DNA of 64,000 nucleotides, from contig DATGLG010000067.1 of assembly GCA_035294245.1 (NCBI GenBank), forward strand, positions 173,726 to 237,725. Direction: 5' to 3'. The position numbers and the translations under genes were made by a program. The DNA comes from Alphaproteobacteria bacterium (lineage in GTDB: Bacteria; Pseudomonadota; Alphaproteobacteria; JACZXZ01). Of this stretch, positions 2,590 to 7,637 are shown piece by piece; position 1 is the first letter of the stretch, and each line of letters opens with the position of its first letter. The notes below the pieces were generated by a model. The model made no database searches and was not told the origin of the DNA. It saw nothing but the letters and a program-made list of their open reading frames with translations.

Positions 2590-3768
2590 ATGAACGCACC
2601 AGCTGCTTTGGGACAGCTCCTTCCCCTCGAGGCCTATACTTCGGACGAGTGGTTCCGCGCCGAGCAGGCCAAGCTGTTCGGCAAGGCCTGGGTCTTCGCG
2701 GGCATGGCCGAGGACCTGAGGGCGCCGGGCGATTACCAATGCGTCGATTCCGGCGCGTCCTCGCTGATTCTCCTGCGCGACAGACAGGGCGAGCTGCGCG
2801 CCTTCCACAATGTGTGCCGCCACCGCGGCGCGCGCCTGCTGGAAGGGCGCGGCAATGTGGGGAGCGCCATCACCTGCTTCTATCACAATTGGACCTATGA
2901 GCTGAGCGGCGCCTTGACCGGCGTCACCCTCGGGCGCGACCAGTTTCCCGGCATCGACAAGTCCTGCTATGGCCTGCGCCGGGCCCAGGTGGGGCGCTGG
3001 AAGAACCTCGTCTTCGTGAATCCCGATCCCGCCGCGGAATCCTTCGACGACTGGCTCGCCGGGGTGCCGGAGGCGCGCACCCTCAACGAGCCGGGCCAGC
3101 TCGCGCTCCACGATCCCGAGCGGCTGGTCGAGGTGTCGAGCGTGCGCTACCGCGTGCACGCCAATTGGAAGATCGTCGTCGAGAACTTCATCGACGGCTA
3201 TCACCTCCCGCTGCTGCACAAGGTCTCCCTCGGCGACGGCGATTTCATGAGGCAGAAATGGGCGCCGCGCGGCCGCCACGTCACCTTCTACCGCCCGCTC
3301 AAGCCCGGCATCTCCTATAACGACCAGCCCTTGCCGGTGATCGAGGGCATCCCGCCCACCTATGGTCTCGCCTATTACTGGCTCTTCCCCAGCGTGGCGA
3401 TCACCGAGACCGCGACCTTCTGGACGACCTTCCACGTCATCCCTCTCTCGGCCCGGGACAGCATCGTCCACAGTCGCCTGCGCGCGATGCCCGAGGCGCT
3501 CGCGCGCAAGGGCAGCCGGCAGGTGGCGGTGAACCAGGCGCTGCCGCGCCACGTGATCAGCGCCGAAGGTCCCTATGCGGAGATGCGGCTCGACCTGAGC
3601 GAGACCCATCCGCTCCAGTCGAACAACGTCATGGCCGAGGACATTTATGCCTGCGAGGCGGTGCAGCGGGGCATGGACTCGGGCTCCTGCGAGATCGGCC
3701 CCCTCTCCAAATGGGAATCGACTCTGACCTTCTTCCAGAAGCACGTGCTCGATTATATGGGGGCGTGA
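2590..3768 (+). CDS. Rieske (2Fe-2S) non-heme iron oxygenase alpha subunit, stand-alone (GbcA/CntA-like architecture)
   Basis: 392 aa; Rieske motif CRHRG...CFYHNW (CxH-x17-CxxH); catalytic domain with conserved His/Asp region. No beta subunit or reductase adjacent. Confidence 0.85.
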   Translation: MNAPAALGQLLPLEAYTSDEWFRAEQAKLFGKAWVFAGMAEDLRAPGDYQCVDSGASSLILLRDRQGELRAFHNVCRHRGARLLEGRGNVGSAITCFYHNWTYELSGALTGVTLGRDQFPGIDKSCYGLRRAQVGRWKNLVFVNPDPAAESFDDWLAGVPEARTLNEPGQLALHDPERLVEVSSVRYRVHANWKIVVENFIDGYHLPLLHKVSLGDGDFMRQKWAPRGRHVTFYRPLKPGISYNDQPLPVIEGIPPTYGLAYYWLFPSVAITETATFWTTFHVIPLSARDSIVHSRLRAMPEALARKGSRQVAVNQALPRHVISAEGPYAEMRLDLSETHPLQSNNVMAEDIYACEAVQRGMDSGSCEIGPLSKWESTLTFFQKHVLDYMGA

Positions 3769-3795
3769 GGCGCTTCGATTCGATCGAAGATCATC

Positions 3796-3911
3796 GTCAC
3801 CCCGGCCGACCCCGGATTGATCCGGGGAAGAGCCGGGCCCCAGCTTGAAGCGATGTCGCAGTGCTGGGCCCCGGATCGCGCCGCGCTGCCGCGCAGCTTG
3901 TCCGGGGTGAC
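3796..3911 (+). repeat. 116-bp MITE/REP-like structured repeat element, copy A (12-bp terminal inverted repeats gtcaccccggcc...ggccggggtgac)
   Basis: ~90% identical to the reverse complement of 5807..5922. Internal hairpins; no coding capacity. Confidence 0.65.
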
Positions 3912-4044
3912 GACGAGTGGAGCAAAATCCTACTTGATTCAGCAGCGAATGCAGGCAATCGTCGCGAAGCGATGACGTCGCGGATCACGAGCCAGCTCGG
4001 AGTCAAGACGCACGATCCCGTAATTCTTAGTAAGCTTATTTTAT

Positions 4045-4809
4045 CTAGGCTGCGCCGCCCGGTCGGCGCGCGCGCCGCTTGACAAATGCCGAAGCCGCAA
4101 GCTCCCGCTGCCCGGCCGGCTCCCGGCCTGCCGCGGCAAACAGGCTGAGCGCGAACCAAGAAGAGAATGCCTCCACCTCGCCACGCGACCCATCAAGACG
4201 AAGCCGGCCGTCGCGAATGGCGCTCTGGATTGGAACGTGGCCAAGCCAGATTTGTGTGAGGACACGCAAATTGGCTTCGACGAAAAGGTCGACGTCGAAG
4301 CCGGGATCGCGATAGCACAGATCGACAGCGCCGCGCTCGAAGACCAACCAGTAACGGCGTCGGCTGATCGGCACGCCGGAGAGTCGGAATTCGACGACCA
4401 ACCGCCGATTCCGCCTCGGCGCATGGGCCGCAACGTTGCGGCGAATGTCCCACATCAAAAGATCGGGGTCCAAATTCGCGGTATCGACGAGATCATGACG
4501 GAGCCAGCGCTGCGCCCAGAGCCCCATTTTCTCGACCACCGGGAAAAGCTCCCGGCCGGCCGCCGTCAGGTGATACTCGACGCCGCCACCCTCTCTGCGC
4601 CGACGCTCGACGATACCGGCGAACTGCAGCTGCCTGAGACGTTGCGTCAGCAGCGCCGACGACATTCGCGGCACCCCGCGCTGCAGATCGTTGAAGCGGA
4701 CGCTGCCGCACAACAGCTCCCGGATGACCAGCGGCATCCATCGCTCGGCCAATATCTCGGCCGCAAGGGCAATCGGACAGAACTGGCCGTATCCGCGTCT
4801 CTCAGCCAT
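4045..4809 (-). CDS. HxlR-family (MarR-like winged-helix) transcriptional regulator with ~130-aa C-terminal extension
   Basis: Start MAERRGYGQFCPIALAAEILAERWMPLVIRELL... is the HxlR signature. Last ~20 codons lie inside the duplicated junction segment 4015..4105. Confidence 0.75.
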   Translation of the reverse strand: MAERRGYGQFCPIALAAEILAERWMPLVIRELLCGSVRFNDLQRGVPRMSSALLTQRLRQLQFAGIVERRRREGGGVEYHLTAAGRELFPVVEKMGLWAQRWLRHDLVDTANLDPDLLMWDIRRNVAAHAPRRNRRLVVEFRLSGVPISRRRYWLVFERGAVDLCYRDPGFDVDLFVEANLRVLTQIWLGHVPIQSAIRDGRLRLDGSRGEVEAFSSWFALSLFAAAGREPAGQRELAASAFVKRRARRPGGAA

Positions 4810-4818
4810 GCCATATCC

Positions 4819-4888
4819 TAGCAAGAAACCACGTCGTGGCCACTTCACATTTTAAAGTTGAGGGCTCGGGCAGTCGGGGCGAAGCTCT
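4819..4888 (+). promoter_or_regulatory. ~70-bp promoter/operator module (copy 1) containing palindrome ccacgtcgtgg, upstream of PEP-CTERM gene and divergent from hxlR
   Basis: Recurs at 5952..6018 upstream of the ACAD-family gene (agcaagaaa...cacttcaca(t/a)tt(t/g)aa(a)gttga(g/a)ggctcgggc(a/g)gtcggggcgaagctctc). Confidence 0.4.
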
Positions 4889-4953
4889 CACACCGGGACA
4901 TGCGCGGCTCTCAAAGAGCATTACCCTCGTCGTCTTCTGCGAAGGAGACGTTT

Positions 4954-5742
4954 ATGTCGAATGGTAATTCCTTGGGCTTTCCGAACGGCGTACGCGCCGC
5001 GCTGCTCGTTGTCGCCGCCATACTGGCCAACACGAGCGCAGCAACTGCGGGCGTGTGGCAGTCGGGCGACGAGATCACTTACACCCAAGTCTCGTGGCCC
5101 GACAATGCGACGGCTGCCGCGCTGCTCACCGACCATTACAGCAGCGTGTATCTGTCCACCTCCGACGTTTTTGAGGTGGGCATCCCCGGCCCGAGCGGCT
5201 TTTCATTAAGCTTTGGCGATGCGTCGCATGTGCTGGCCTTTTTGCCCGAGGCCGGTATACCTGGGCCGCTCACCCAAAGTCAGACTAATCCCGGCTCCAG
5301 CGAATCCGGTCTGTTCGCTGGCGATGTGATGGCGTTGAAATTGGACGTTGACTTTTCGGATGCGGGGCTTCTGCTGGGCAGCTCCGGGATTCCGTTCGGG
5401 GACCTCGTCCTCAGCAACTTCCTGGTCGAAACATCCGACGCGGACCTCAACGGCTTAACCGTGCGCGAGTTTCTGGCCGACGACAACATGGCACTCGGTG
5501 GCGGTCCCAGCCTGAAACCCATCGCTATCATGGACTCGATTACCGAAGACGTGAATATTGCTTTTGATGGCGGTATCGTGACCCCGTTCGCGCAGGATCA
5601 TCTCGTGGCCCCCAGCATGCCCGTCTCTGCCGTGCCGGAGCCGTCCAGTTGGGTTCTGCTCGGCGCCGGGCTGGCGGCCCTCGCCGCGACCCGGCGCTGG
5701 CGAAAAACTAAAATCGGCGGCGGTCTCAAGCGCGTCTCGTGA
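4954..5742 (+). CDS. PEP-CTERM sorting-domain secreted protein
   Basis: RBS aaggag then ATG; signal peptide MSNGNSLGFPNGVRAALLVVAAILANTSAATA; C-terminus VPEPSSWVLLGAGLAALAATRRWRK is a PEP-CTERM motif. Confidence 0.75.
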   Translation: MSNGNSLGFPNGVRAALLVVAAILANTSAATAGVWQSGDEITYTQVSWPDNATAAALLTDHYSSVYLSTSDVFEVGIPGPSGFSLSFGDASHVLAFLPEAGIPGPLTQSQTNPGSSESGLFAGDVMALKLDVDFSDAGLLLGSSGIPFGDLVLSNFLVETSDADLNGLTVREFLADDNMALGGGPSLKPIAIMDSITEDVNIAFDGGIVTPFAQDHLVAPSMPVSAVPEPSSWVLLGAGLAALAATRRWRKTKIGGGLKRVS

Positions 5743-5806
5743 GTCGTAGAGAAGGCGATTGCGCTCCGGATTGGCTGGAGAAGGGCAGTTGCATCCGTTT
5801 TTATTC

Positions 5807-5922
5807 GTCACCCCGGACAAGCCGTGCGAAAGCACGGCGCGATCCGGGGCCCAGTACTGCGACATCGCTTCAAGCTGGGCCCCGGCTTCCCCCGGATCAC
5901 GTTCGGGGTCGGCCGGGGTGAC
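5807..5922 (+). repeat. 116-bp MITE/REP-like structured repeat element, copy B (inverted relative to copy A)
   Basis: gtcaccccggac...gtcggccggggtgac. Contains gccgtgc-gaaa-gcacggc hairpin and long imperfect hairpin gatccggggcccag...ctgggccccgg. Confidence 0.65.
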
Positions 5923-5951
5923 ATGGGGGAATCGAAATGAGAGACGTTAAT

Positions 5952-6018
5952 CACGAGCAAGAAAAAGCGTCTCCTCCACTTCACATATTGAAGTTGAAGG
6001 CTCGGGCGGTCGGGGCGA
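5952..6018 (+). promoter_or_regulatory. ~70-bp promoter/operator module (copy 2) upstream of ACAD-family gene
   Basis: Paralogous to 4819..4888; ORF-track translations of both contain ARAVGAKLS. Confidence 0.4.
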
Positions 6019-6050
6019 AGCTCTCGCGGACGCCCAAATCGAGGTCCGCC

Positions 6051-7184
6051 ATGTCCCGATCTCTCGACCTGGAAGCGCTTGCGGAGAGCATTGGACCGCG
6101 CTTTGCCGAGGGCGCGGCCGAGCGCGATCAAGGCGACGTCTTCGTATCGGGACACTACGATATTCTGAAAGAGCACAAGGTCTTTTCGGCGCTGGTTCCT
6201 GTCGAGCTCGGGGGTGCCGGTGCGCGCCATAGCGCCATGTGCGCCTTTCTGCGGCGGCTCGCCCATTATTGCCCATCGACGGCGCTGGCGCTGTCCATGC
6301 ACCAGCACCTCGTCGCGGCCGCGGTCTACCACCACCTCAACGGCAGGCCCGGAAAGGCGCTGCTGGAGCGGGTTGCAGCCAACGAGACGGTTCTCATCTC
6401 GACCGGCGCCAATGATTGGATGGAATCGAGCGGCACCATGGAGCGCGCCGCCGGCGGCTACCGCGTCAGCGCCAGAAAGCCGTTCGGCAGCGGTTCGCCT
6501 AAGGGCGGGGTCCTGGTGACCTCCGCGACGTTTAACGATCCCAAGGACGGCTGGCAGGTCCTGCATTTCGCCGTTCCTTTCGCCGCGCCCGGGATTTCGC
6601 TGGCCGATGATTGGCGCGCGCTCGGCATGCGCTCAACCGGCTCCCACACGATCGTTCTGGATAACGTCTTCGTGCCGGATGATGCGATCGCGCTGCGGCG
6701 GCCGCGCGGCCGGTTCCATCCCGCCTGGAATGTGATTCTGACTGTGGCAATGCCGCTGATTATGTCGGTTTACGCCGGGGTCGCAGAGGCTGCTGCGGCG
6801 ATTGGAGGCGAGCAGGCAAAAAAGCGCTCGAATGATCCAGCCGTGCCGTATCTGCTCGGCGAGCTGGCCAACGAGCTGACGACGGTCCAGCTTGCCATTG
6901 CCGACATGGTTCGCCTCGCCAACGACTTCGATTTCGCCATGAAGCTGGAGGTTGCCAACGCCATGCTGGTGCGCAAGACGATCGTCGCCGAGCATGTGCT
7001 GTCGACGGTGGAAAAGGCATTGGAGGCGGCCGGCGGCGCCGGCTTTTATCGTCCTGCCGGGCTCGAGCGGCTGTTGCGCGACGCCCATGGCGCGCAATTC
7101 CATCCCCTCTCAGCGAAACGCCAGCACCGGTTCACCGGCCGCATTGCGCTCGGCCTCGATCCTATCGCGGATGCGCCGGCCTGA
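6051..7184 (+). CDS. Acyl-CoA dehydrogenase family flavoprotein (possibly ACAD-type flavin monooxygenase)
   Basis: 378 aa from MSRSLDLEALAESIGPRF...; ACAD N/middle/C domain architecture by eye. Exact substrate unknown. Confidence 0.7.
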   Translation: MSRSLDLEALAESIGPRFAEGAAERDQGDVFVSGHYDILKEHKVFSALVPVELGGAGARHSAMCAFLRRLAHYCPSTALALSMHQHLVAAAVYHHLNGRPGKALLERVAANETVLISTGANDWMESSGTMERAAGGYRVSARKPFGSGSPKGGVLVTSATFNDPKDGWQVLHFAVPFAAPGISLADDWRALGMRSTGSHTIVLDNVFVPDDAIALRRPRGRFHPAWNVILTVAMPLIMSVYAGVAEAAAAIGGEQAKKRSNDPAVPYLLGELANELTTVQLAIADMVRLANDFDFAMKLEVANAMLVRKTIVAEHVLSTVEKALEAAGGAGFYRPAGLERLLRDAHGAQFHPLSAKRQHRFTGRIALGLDPIADAPA

Positions 7185-7196
7185 AGTCTGGGAGCA

Positions 7197-7300
7197 GTCG
7201 TGGGGTGGACGCCGGCTCCTGCGAGATCGGCTCCCTCTCCAAATGGGAATCGACGCTGCCTTTCTTCCAGAAGCACGTGCTCGACGATATGGGGGTGTGA
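7197..7300 (+). pseudogene. Remnant 3' end (34 codons plus stop) of a Rieske oxygenase gene; duplicate of 3670..3773
   Basis: Reads ...RGVDAGSCEIGSLSKWESTLPFFQKHVLDDMGV* versus RGMDSGSCEIGPLSKWESTLTFFQKHVLDYMGA* in the intact gene. No upstream coding body. Confidence 0.55.
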
Positions 7301-7637
7301 GGCTCTCCCGAGAGCGAGGTCATTGCGAGCGCCCGCGGCCGAGCCAGCAAGGCGGCGGGAGCGCGGCAATCCAGTCTCCTGGATCGCCACGATCGCGGAG
7401 CCTGTCCTCGGGCCGGCTTTCAGCCGGACCCGTGGGCGATCTCGCGATGATGGTTGCGACGCGACAAGGACGTCACCGCGAGCCGGAGGGGAAGCTTTGC
7501 GATGACGACGGGCCCGTGATTCTGCGCCGCTCCCGTAACCCTTAGTAAACTTATCTGGTCTAGGCTGCGCCGCCTGATCGGCGAGCGCGACGCTTGACAA
7601 ATGTCGATGCCGCAGGCGCCGCTCAGGATTCGAGCCT

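Follow-up and report, generated by a model that had tools for sequence, protein, structure and literature searches.

What does it mean that a regulator gene and a neighboring PEP-CTERM gene stand between two inverted copies of the same structured repeat? This question is raised by a locus in a 64,000-nt stretch of DNA (the window) from contig DATGLG010000067.1 of an uncultured alphaproteobacterium, in which an hxlR gene and a PEP-CTERM gene are bracketed by an inverted pair of elements, here termed A and B. A sequence-only reading of this DNA had offered two explanations: a composite-transposon-like cassette flanked by miniature inverted-repeat transposable elements (MITEs), or repetitive extragenic palindromic (REP)-like structured elements at gene ends, acting as terminators or insulators. 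Our analysis favors the second kind of element, but not the function proposed for it. A and B are most probably (at a probability of roughly 0.78) tags-outside dimers of palindromic REP units of the CGTC-tagged superfamily, which arrived by two separate insertions and whose pairing is incidental.

The positions of the pair (3796-3911 and 5807-5922) and its reverse-complement identity of about 90% were confirmed. Alignment with blastn gave 89.7% identity as reverse complements over 117 columns, with a single 1-nt indel (E = 1.9e-30), and a repeat search of the window recovered inverted arms of 118 nt (3796-3913 and 5805-5922) that are 85% complementary without gaps. Both elements are 116 nt long. 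The homology ends 2 nt beyond the 116-nt borders (3912-3913 and 5805-5806) and the remaining flanks are unshared, indicating that the repeated unit is sharply bordered. The two elements are:

3796..3911, + strand: element A, consisting of alpha unit, spacer and beta unit; a CGTC-type REP dimer with the tags outside.
5807..5922, - strand: element B, the dimer of A reversed; the + strand order is beta unit, spacer, alpha unit.

Both elements are intergenic. A occupies a convergent intergenic region, 27 nt past the stop codon of a Rieske oxygenase gene (+) and 133 nt past that of hxlR (-). B lies 64 nt past the PEP-CTERM stop codon, 33 nt before a second copy of the promoter region of hxlR and an acyl-CoA-dehydrogenase-like gene (ACAD), and 128 nt ahead of the start codon of ACAD (6051). 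Terminal inverted repeats (TIRs) of about 12 bp had been ascribed to the elements. Within one element the repeat is perfect over 10 nt (GTCACCCCGG / CCGGGGTGAC) and matches at 11 of 12, whereas the quoted pair gtcaccccggcc / ggccggggtgac turned out to be one and the same end, taken from two different copies. The base directly before GTCAC is C at three of the four ends of A and B, and T at the fourth. The quoted hairpins (GCCGTGC-GAAA-GCACGGC in copy B and the central CCGGGGCCCAG...CTGGGCCCCGG) do exist, and the peptide RRDPGPSTATSLQAG is indeed common to A (frame -1) and B (frame +1).

The internal anatomy of the elements identifies them more closely. In each, two different 47-nt units stand in inverted orientation on either side of a 22-nt spacer. 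All units follow one grammar: a (C/T)GTC tag, a stem ACCCCGGN, a loop of ~25 nt, the stem NCCGGGGC, and a CCA tail. The parts are as follows:

3796..3842, + strand: alpha unit of A, 47 nt; GTCA-CCCCGGC, a ~25-nt loop with the hairpin CCCCGGATTGATCCGGGG, then GCCGGGC-CCCA.
3843..3864, no strand: spacer of A, 22 nt (GCTTGAAGCGATGTCGCAGTGC); the loop of the central stem, with a small hairpin GCGA-TG-TCGC.
3865..3911, - strand: beta unit of A, 47 nt; CGTC-ACCCCGGA, a 25-nt loop with GCTGCGC-GGCA-GCGCGGC, then TCCGGGGC-CCA.
5807..5853, + strand: beta unit of B; CGTC-ACCCCGGA, a loop with GCCGTGC-GAAA-GCACGGC, then TCCGGGGC-CCA.
5854..5875, no strand: spacer of B, 22 nt.
5876..5922, - strand: alpha unit of B, with the TGTC tag variant (base 5923 is A on the + strand).

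The base at 3795 is C, giving the alpha unit of A its CGTC tag; the tag is CGTC in three of the four units and TGTC in one, and the tail is CCCA in all four. The stem forms seven Watson-Crick pairs and an A.C closing position, the second position being C, not T, and the alpha unit of A has one extra stem mismatch. The enlarged loops carry hairpins of their own, CCCCGGAT..ATCCGGGG in the alpha loop and GCYGYGC-NNNN-GCRCRGC in the beta loop. In B, the beta hairpin is a perfect 7-bp stem with a GAAA cap; relative to A it shows a single compensated C-G to T-A pair and a single mismatch that has been repaired. The two copies agree in their heads and tails and at 21 of 22 spacer positions. CCCCGG and CCGGGG occur twice each per element, and two folds are therefore possible: two local REP hairpins, or a four-way junction, preferred by the energy model, in which the two heads pair with each other and the two tails do likewise. 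As single strands, A and B are predicted to fold into a cloverleaf with a 10-bp terminal stem and three hairpins. With RNA parameters the energy is -71 to -78 kcal/mol (z of -5.0 to -7.7 relative to dinucleotide shuffles), and with DNA parameters it is -38 to -42 kcal/mol.

This architecture closely resembles the CGTC-tagged REP superfamily, whose units carry a CGTC tag (variants TGTC and CCTC), an 8-9-bp stem beginning with A/T residues, a 4-5-nt loop, and a CCA tail (Di Nocera, De Gregorio and Rocco, BMC Genomics 2013, PMC3733652). Such units occur mostly as 'HH' (tags-outside) dimers, and their 20-100-bp spacers are often conserved; they are mainly alphaproteobacterial, no transposase is associated with them, and those of Bradyrhizobium have loops of atypical length (PMC3733652). 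A and B share with them the unpaired CGTC/TGTC tag, the CCA tail, the tags-outside dimer, a spacer (22 nt) conserved between copies, the intergenic position just past genes, the alphaproteobacterial host, and the lack of a linked transposase; the stem, with eight positions and an initial A, agrees in part. The closest members are CGTC-1-type units with ACCCCGG stems from Sphingomonadales. Intragenic CGTC-1 REPs give rise to the peptides WTPDQVRGD in Sphingopyxis alaskensis and RHPGLDPGS in Erythrobacter litoralis (PMC3733652). These peptides back-translate to ...ACCCCGGAYCARGTNCGNGGNGAC and CGTCACCCCGG..., that is, to the ACCCCGG stem seen in the window, which ties the family recovered below to the CGTC class. 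A and B differ from the published class in that their dimer is built from two different units. Since tag, tail, dimer, spacer and location fit, whereas the loop length fails and the closing pair deviates, the units appear from their sequence to form a new subfamily of CGTC-tagged REPs, rather than textbook members.

A search for the termini in other genomes (GTCACCCCGG-N81-111-CCGGGGTGAC, one genome per species) returned at least 120 loci, mostly in Alphaproteobacteria; among the matches listed, most came from Sphingomonas and other Sphingomonadales, Caulobacterales, Rhodospirillales, Roseibium, and unclassified Alphaproteobacteria. Together with A and B, the family set comprised at least 131 elements, and 114 of the 131 listed parse on both halves as GTCA-CCCCGG-loop-CCGGGG-tail. 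GTCAC is preceded by C in 78% of the listed elements and by T in 19%, and their tail is TCCA or CCCA. Their usual loop is 7 nt in this parse, equal to an 8-bp stem with a 5-nt loop. Loops of 13-33 nt were seen in ~30 of the 131, for example in metagenome-assembled genomes (MAGs) of Caulobacterales, Rhodospirillales and Roseibium, and roughly half of the enlarged loops contain a hairpin of their own. The closest units among the matches listed agree with the beta unit at 40 of 47 positions (L023) and with the alpha unit at 34 of 47 (L055 and L071).

These relatives lie mostly a short way past stop codons, with unrelated genes beside them. Gene context, as called by a crude gene finder using third-codon-position GC content, was tandem for 45 of the listed elements, convergent for 28 and divergent for 8, with 11 inside open reading frames (ORFs), and a median of 47 nt separated the elements from the stop codon of the facing gene. 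The 103 nearest neighbor genes matched 160 Pfam families, none more than twice and with typical housekeeping functions; no transposase was present among the 25 Pfam families listed for these genes. Where element pairs enclose genes (L051, L096, L045 and L006), the products are an MFS transporter, a nucleoside transporter, TauD, GST, and an unknown protein. The flanks of 111 family members match at 3.57 of 10 positions, versus 3.47 of 10 for shuffled partners (tag base excluded), and no target-site duplication was found across these 111 beyond the tag base. Insertion into a palindromic target, leaving an 'inverted' target-site duplication, was considered and rejected, as the composition of the flanks (C-rich 5', G-rich 3') explains the pattern and shuffled partners match equally.

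The order of the genes in relatives bears on the cassette explanation. The window HxlR is 80-88% identical to proteins of Xanthobacteraceae and Bradyrhizobium, and nine loci (L130-L138) from four HxlR homologues were compared. In eight of the nine, the divergent neighbor of hxlR is the ACAD gene, at a distance of ~105 nt; L138, the ninth, is a short contig that lacks ACAD. None of the nine loci has a PEP-CTERM gene between hxlR and ACAD, and none has an A/B-type element at hxlR. The regulator-target pair first suggested, hxlR with the PEP-CTERM gene, is thus replaced by hxlR with ACAD as the conserved pair. In the window, the hxlR-ACAD intergenic (promoter/operator) region is duplicated, as a 70-nt direct repeat (4820-4889 and 5956-6025, 84% identical) with the core CAACTTTAAAATGTGAAGTGG, which is conserved in the relatives; one copy stands beside hxlR and the other beside ACAD. 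By their positions, the copy at 4820-4889 would now serve hxlR and the PEP-CTERM gene, and that at 5956-6025 would serve ACAD. The nearest PEP-CTERM homologues (76-80% identity) lie 46 nt downstream of an ACAD orthologue that is 92% identical to that of the window, whereas in the window (4954-7184, compared with L139-L145) the PEP-CTERM gene is upstream of ACAD, between the promoter copies, which amounts to a swap of gene order. The ancestral unit, as read from these gene orders, is hxlR ← promoter → ACAD → PEP-CTERM. It follows from the gene order in the relatives that the segment between A and B never formed a unit. An origin of the PEP-CTERM gene as a tandem duplicate of the gene for a 359-aa protein downstream of ACAD (in L131) was discarded, as the two proteins are unrelated.

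Further traces of rearrangement were found in two direct repeats spaced ~3.5 kb apart. One (3667-3774 and 7199-7306, 88% identical) comprises the 3' end of the Rieske gene and a relic copy past the ACAD stop codon; the other (4013-4105 and 7528-7620, 84%) comprises the 3' end of hxlR and a relic 36 nt before a chemoreceptor gene. Both relics sit between the ACAD stop codon and the start of the chemoreceptor gene (7656). The two repeats are probably the remains of a 3.5-kb tandem duplication that has been mostly deleted. Between the repeat blocks the copies are unrelated: copy 1 holds A, and copy 2 holds another palindrome:

7319..7452, no strand: third palindromic element, 134 nt with approximate borders; head GTCATTGCGAG, left unit ending in GGCAATCCAG, expanded loops.

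This third element starts 18 nt past the stop codon of the relic Rieske 3' end after the ACAD gene, at a position that matches the place of A within the relic copy. It is present once in the window and is not homologous to A and B; although an element of their kind, it represents another CGTC-type REP family, and a canonical CGTC REP dimer with the head GTCATTGCGAG was found in L038 (2105-2183). CGTC-type dimers therefore occupy all three intergenic regions that follow gene 3' ends in this four-gene cluster, and none was found in the other ~56 kb. Such full occupancy argues against a special 'bracket' around hxlR and the PEP-CTERM gene, and for REP-type elements gathering, or being tolerated, at the seams of a repeatedly rearranged, slightly GC-poorer stretch. 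In scans of the window, the generic CGTC-REP grammar matched 3 times against 0.23 expected, always inside A or B, and a fuzzy search with the units returned the four units of A and B and 7 weak matches, against ~5.8 expected by chance.

How might such elements arise and what might they do? A and B would be separate insertions of one repeat type into neighboring 3' intergenic regions of a repeatedly rearranged locus, and their inverted arrangement around hxlR and the PEP-CTERM gene would be incidental. By analogy with REPINs (REP doublets forming hairpins) that are mobilized by RAYTs (REP-associated tyrosine transposases), the elements may spread in trans through single-stranded hairpin DNA, using an enzyme encoded elsewhere. 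The system used for comparison is that of REPINs, or bacterial interspersed mosaic elements (BIMEs), with their TnpA-REP tyrosine HUH transposases (Bertels and Rainey 2011; Nunvar 2010; PMC6006769, PMC5581495). A and B resemble REPINs in being ~100-nt doublets of inverted REP units, able to fold into one long hairpin, in their lack of target-site duplications, in their 3' intergenic position, and in their sharp borders. They differ from REPINs in that the GT[AG]G tag is absent, the heads being (C/T)GTCAC. In the RAYT system a single-copy RAYT gene stands between its cognate REPs (a REPtron); no RAYT gene was found in the window, its flank, or the Pfam families listed for the 103 neighbor genes. 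RAYTs mobilize GTAG-tagged REPs and are rare in Alphaproteobacteria (PMC6006769, PMC5581495). The resemblance to REPINs lies in the probable way of working of the element, rather than in established membership. No transposase has been linked to the CGTC class. A RAYT gene was also sought between paired elements of other genomes, but the ORFs between the close pairs in L015, L006 and L067 bear no RAYT likeness; the close pair in L015 has an additional degenerate copy of the element between its members.

Once inserted, an element would be transcribed within a 3' untranslated region (UTR), where its hairpins would probably hinder exonucleases working in the 3'-to-5' direction or reduce read-through into whatever unit follows, which after B is the ACAD promoter copy. 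Enterobacterial REPs are the basis for this idea of a 3'-UTR barrier to exonucleases and read-through. The role as terminators or insulators that had been proposed found no support, although the kind of element did: there is no T-run, and a scan of 3600-6200 found no intrinsic terminator at A or B, its single match (4931-4950) falling in the 5' leader of the PEP-CTERM gene. Without a U-tract, A and B are not classical intrinsic terminators. The strand that folds better, by 5-6 kcal/mol, is sense to hxlR in A and sense to the PEP-CTERM gene in B, a bias of the predicted folds that gives a weak hint toward a role at the RNA level. A bolder version of these ideas seems improbable. It places A and B in a still-active, heterodimeric subfamily of 'orphan' CGTC REPs, and holds that the four-way junction, formed by the enlarged loops with their hairpins, is the substrate of a non-RAYT enzyme and that the elements seeded both the PEP-CTERM/ACAD swap with its promoter duplication and the 3.5-kb duplication of which a relic survives.

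Several points weigh against the reading of A and B as separately inserted CGTC-type REP dimers. Their loops are ~25 nt with a nested hairpin, compared with 4-5 nt in the published class, and their closing pair is A.C, not A-T. Membership in the family rests on short sequence motifs, and the few listed matches from Actinobacteria fall in coding sequence, have no internal structure, and are due to chance. Members of the superfamily are expected in many dispersed copies per host genome; just two copies are present in the 64-kb window and 5-kb flank of the source genome, a search for further copies having found none in the window and none in the 5 kb upstream (L121). The 21-nt core of the spacer gave three chance matches without an element in a metagenome collection, from which the source contig itself was not returned. 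All twelve frame translations of A and B, which were aimed at spurious ORFs over other copies, found no match in a protein database at E <= 10. No match to the elements was obtained among plasmids (blastn, 'distant' mode), and the cores of the alpha and beta units, scanned against viral contigs, matched once, by chance, inside coding sequence. No empty site for B was found in the nearest relatives, where nucleotide homology ends at the ORF borders. Finally, both copies lie within 2 kb, at a place where old duplications of similar divergence (84-90%) abound, so that B could be a local copy of A instead of an independent insertion.

The last point leads to the alternative that survives best, although it is unlikely: B (or A) may be a by-product of segmental rearrangement, a local inverted duplication, in which case the element could still be REP-like in type and the pair would be a relic and no sign of mobility. 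The direct repeats at 4820-4889 / 5956-6025 (84%), 3667-3774 / 7199-7306 (88%) and 4013-4105 / 7528-7620 (84%) are three other old duplications at the locus with similar divergence, A and B are 90% identical and the sole copies in the window, and the spacer that they share had no true match in the metagenome scan (which did not return the source contig). However, a segmental copy does not readily account for homology that ends 2 nt outside the element ends, at the tag, with the other flanks unshared. The duplications observed are direct and do not predict an inverted copy of the element alone, and the grammar of both units is found at more than 100 loci in other genomes.

A second alternative is that A and B are not selfish or neutral DNA repeats but encode a structured non-coding RNA that functions through its sequence-specific fold, be it as a small RNA or as a cis-regulatory part of the 3' UTR. 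The very stable fold (z down to -7.7), the compensated pair in the beta-loop hairpin between A and B, the GAAA (GNRA-type) tetraloop in B, and the better folding, in both copies, of the strand sense to the inner genes are all in keeping with an RNA. This is nevertheless quite unlikely. Searches against Rfam 15 gave no match at gathering thresholds over the whole window and none at E <= 1 over 3700-6100, no promoter-like or terminator-like site was found at the borders, and just two sequences are available for covariation. Across genomes, the palindromic termini are conserved while loops and spacers vary freely, as they should in REPs.

The transposase-less cassette, in which a pair of MITEs forms a composite with hxlR and the PEP-CTERM gene, is very improbable. 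Bacterial MITEs, such as the Correia/NEMIS elements of Neisseria and ERIC, are ~100-150 bp long, with TIRs, strong structure, intergenic positions and co-transcription; they derive from DDE insertion sequences and leave target-site duplications. A and B are similar to MITEs in size, terminal inverted repeats, secondary structure and intergenic location; two inverted copies with 10-nt TIRs stand 1.9 kb apart around two genes, and the GC content falls to 0.60-0.63 over 3600-6300. In contrast to MITEs, they have no target-site duplication, either at A, at B, or around the pair (A is preceded by ATCATC and followed by GACGAG, B by TTATTC and ATGGGG), in line with the chance-level matching of flanks across the family, and no parent insertion sequence with their termini was found. 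No transposase, integrase or HUH domain was detected among the annotated genes of L121 and 40 further ORFs of the window, and none was found in the 5 kb upstream. The gene history also speaks against a cassette: hxlR and ACAD are ancestral neighbors, both copies of their intergenic region survive around the PEP-CTERM gene and B, and the PEP-CTERM gene came from just downstream of ACAD. A third REP-type element follows the ACAD gene, and element pairs elsewhere bracket housekeeping genes.

Least credible of all is the view of A and B as recombination sites that invert the 1.9-kb hxlR / PEP-CTERM segment as a switch: although a 116-nt inverted repeat does flank a segment with a divergent promoter region, no recombinase gene is nearby, the arms are 10% diverged, all six contig places listed from different samples (with seven more grouped as similar) have the same orientation, and inversion would leave the ancestral divergent hxlR-ACAD order unrestored.

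A number of further observations concern the genes of the locus. The HxlR-family regulator (4045-4809, - strand) is 254 aa long, twice the usual length, and its C-terminal region gave a sub-threshold match to the SCP2 sterol-carrier family (E = 8.9e-4); the long form is conserved in ~240-aa homologues from Xanthobacteraceae and Bradyrhizobium. The GC content of 0.60-0.63 at 3600-6300 compares with 0.67-0.73 on either side, and third-codon-position GC is 0.73-0.76 in the hxlR, PEP-CTERM and ACAD genes versus 0.85-0.92 in most genes of the window. The terminator-like match at 4931-4950 consists of an 8-bp hairpin followed by TTTATG, and overlaps a Shine-Dalgarno-like AAGGAG directly ahead of the start codon of the PEP-CTERM gene (4954), where it may act in translation or as an attenuator.

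Other observations concern the wider family. The enlarged CGTC-REP loops of L055, L071, L095 and L103, which form no hairpin, share the motif GGAGCG[AT]AGCG[GA], which points to a second kind of loop insert. Read on the strand toward the element, the outward flanks of the elements in L001-L120 (12 nt examined per end) are C-rich and G-poor for ~10 nt, and the base at position -2 outside the ends is a pyrimidine in 90%. The C-rich outer flank may represent a target preference or an unrecognized outer part of the element. NZ_QDFQ01000001.1 (L028 and L038), a 1.67-Mb contig titled Arthrobacter sp. TPD3018, contains Sphingomonas-type CGTC REP dimers of two families, and this record may be mislabeled or contaminated.

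Several independent assemblies of the locus from other samples break at B. Three short contigs (L122, L124 and L125) end at window position 5933, 11 nt after B, and a fourth (L126) ends at 5816, 10 nt into B. In L123, an N-gap with junk sequence (4012-4072) lies inside B; the apparent 68-nt insertion in this copy was dismissed, as it is the scaffold gap of Ns with its junk sequence. These breaks are compatible with a repeat, with a hairpin-induced drop in coverage, or with strain or population variation.

The significance of the finding is modest. The inverted pair, striking as its position on either side of two genes is, consists of two REP-type repeats of an ordinary kind, and annotation of the locus as a mobile cassette is unwarranted. 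GC-rich palindromes of this kind coincide with contig ends and one scaffold gap in independent assemblies. The elements sit at the seams of old rearrangements, a position that fits the known role of REPs at the join-points of duplications. A CGTC-type REP variant with long, structured loops is documented in an uncultured relative of Xanthobacteraceae and Bradyrhizobium, and the long-loop variant occurs in several other alphaproteobacterial MAGs as well. Genomes with multiple copies of such variants are a place to seek the mobilizing enzyme of the CGTC class.

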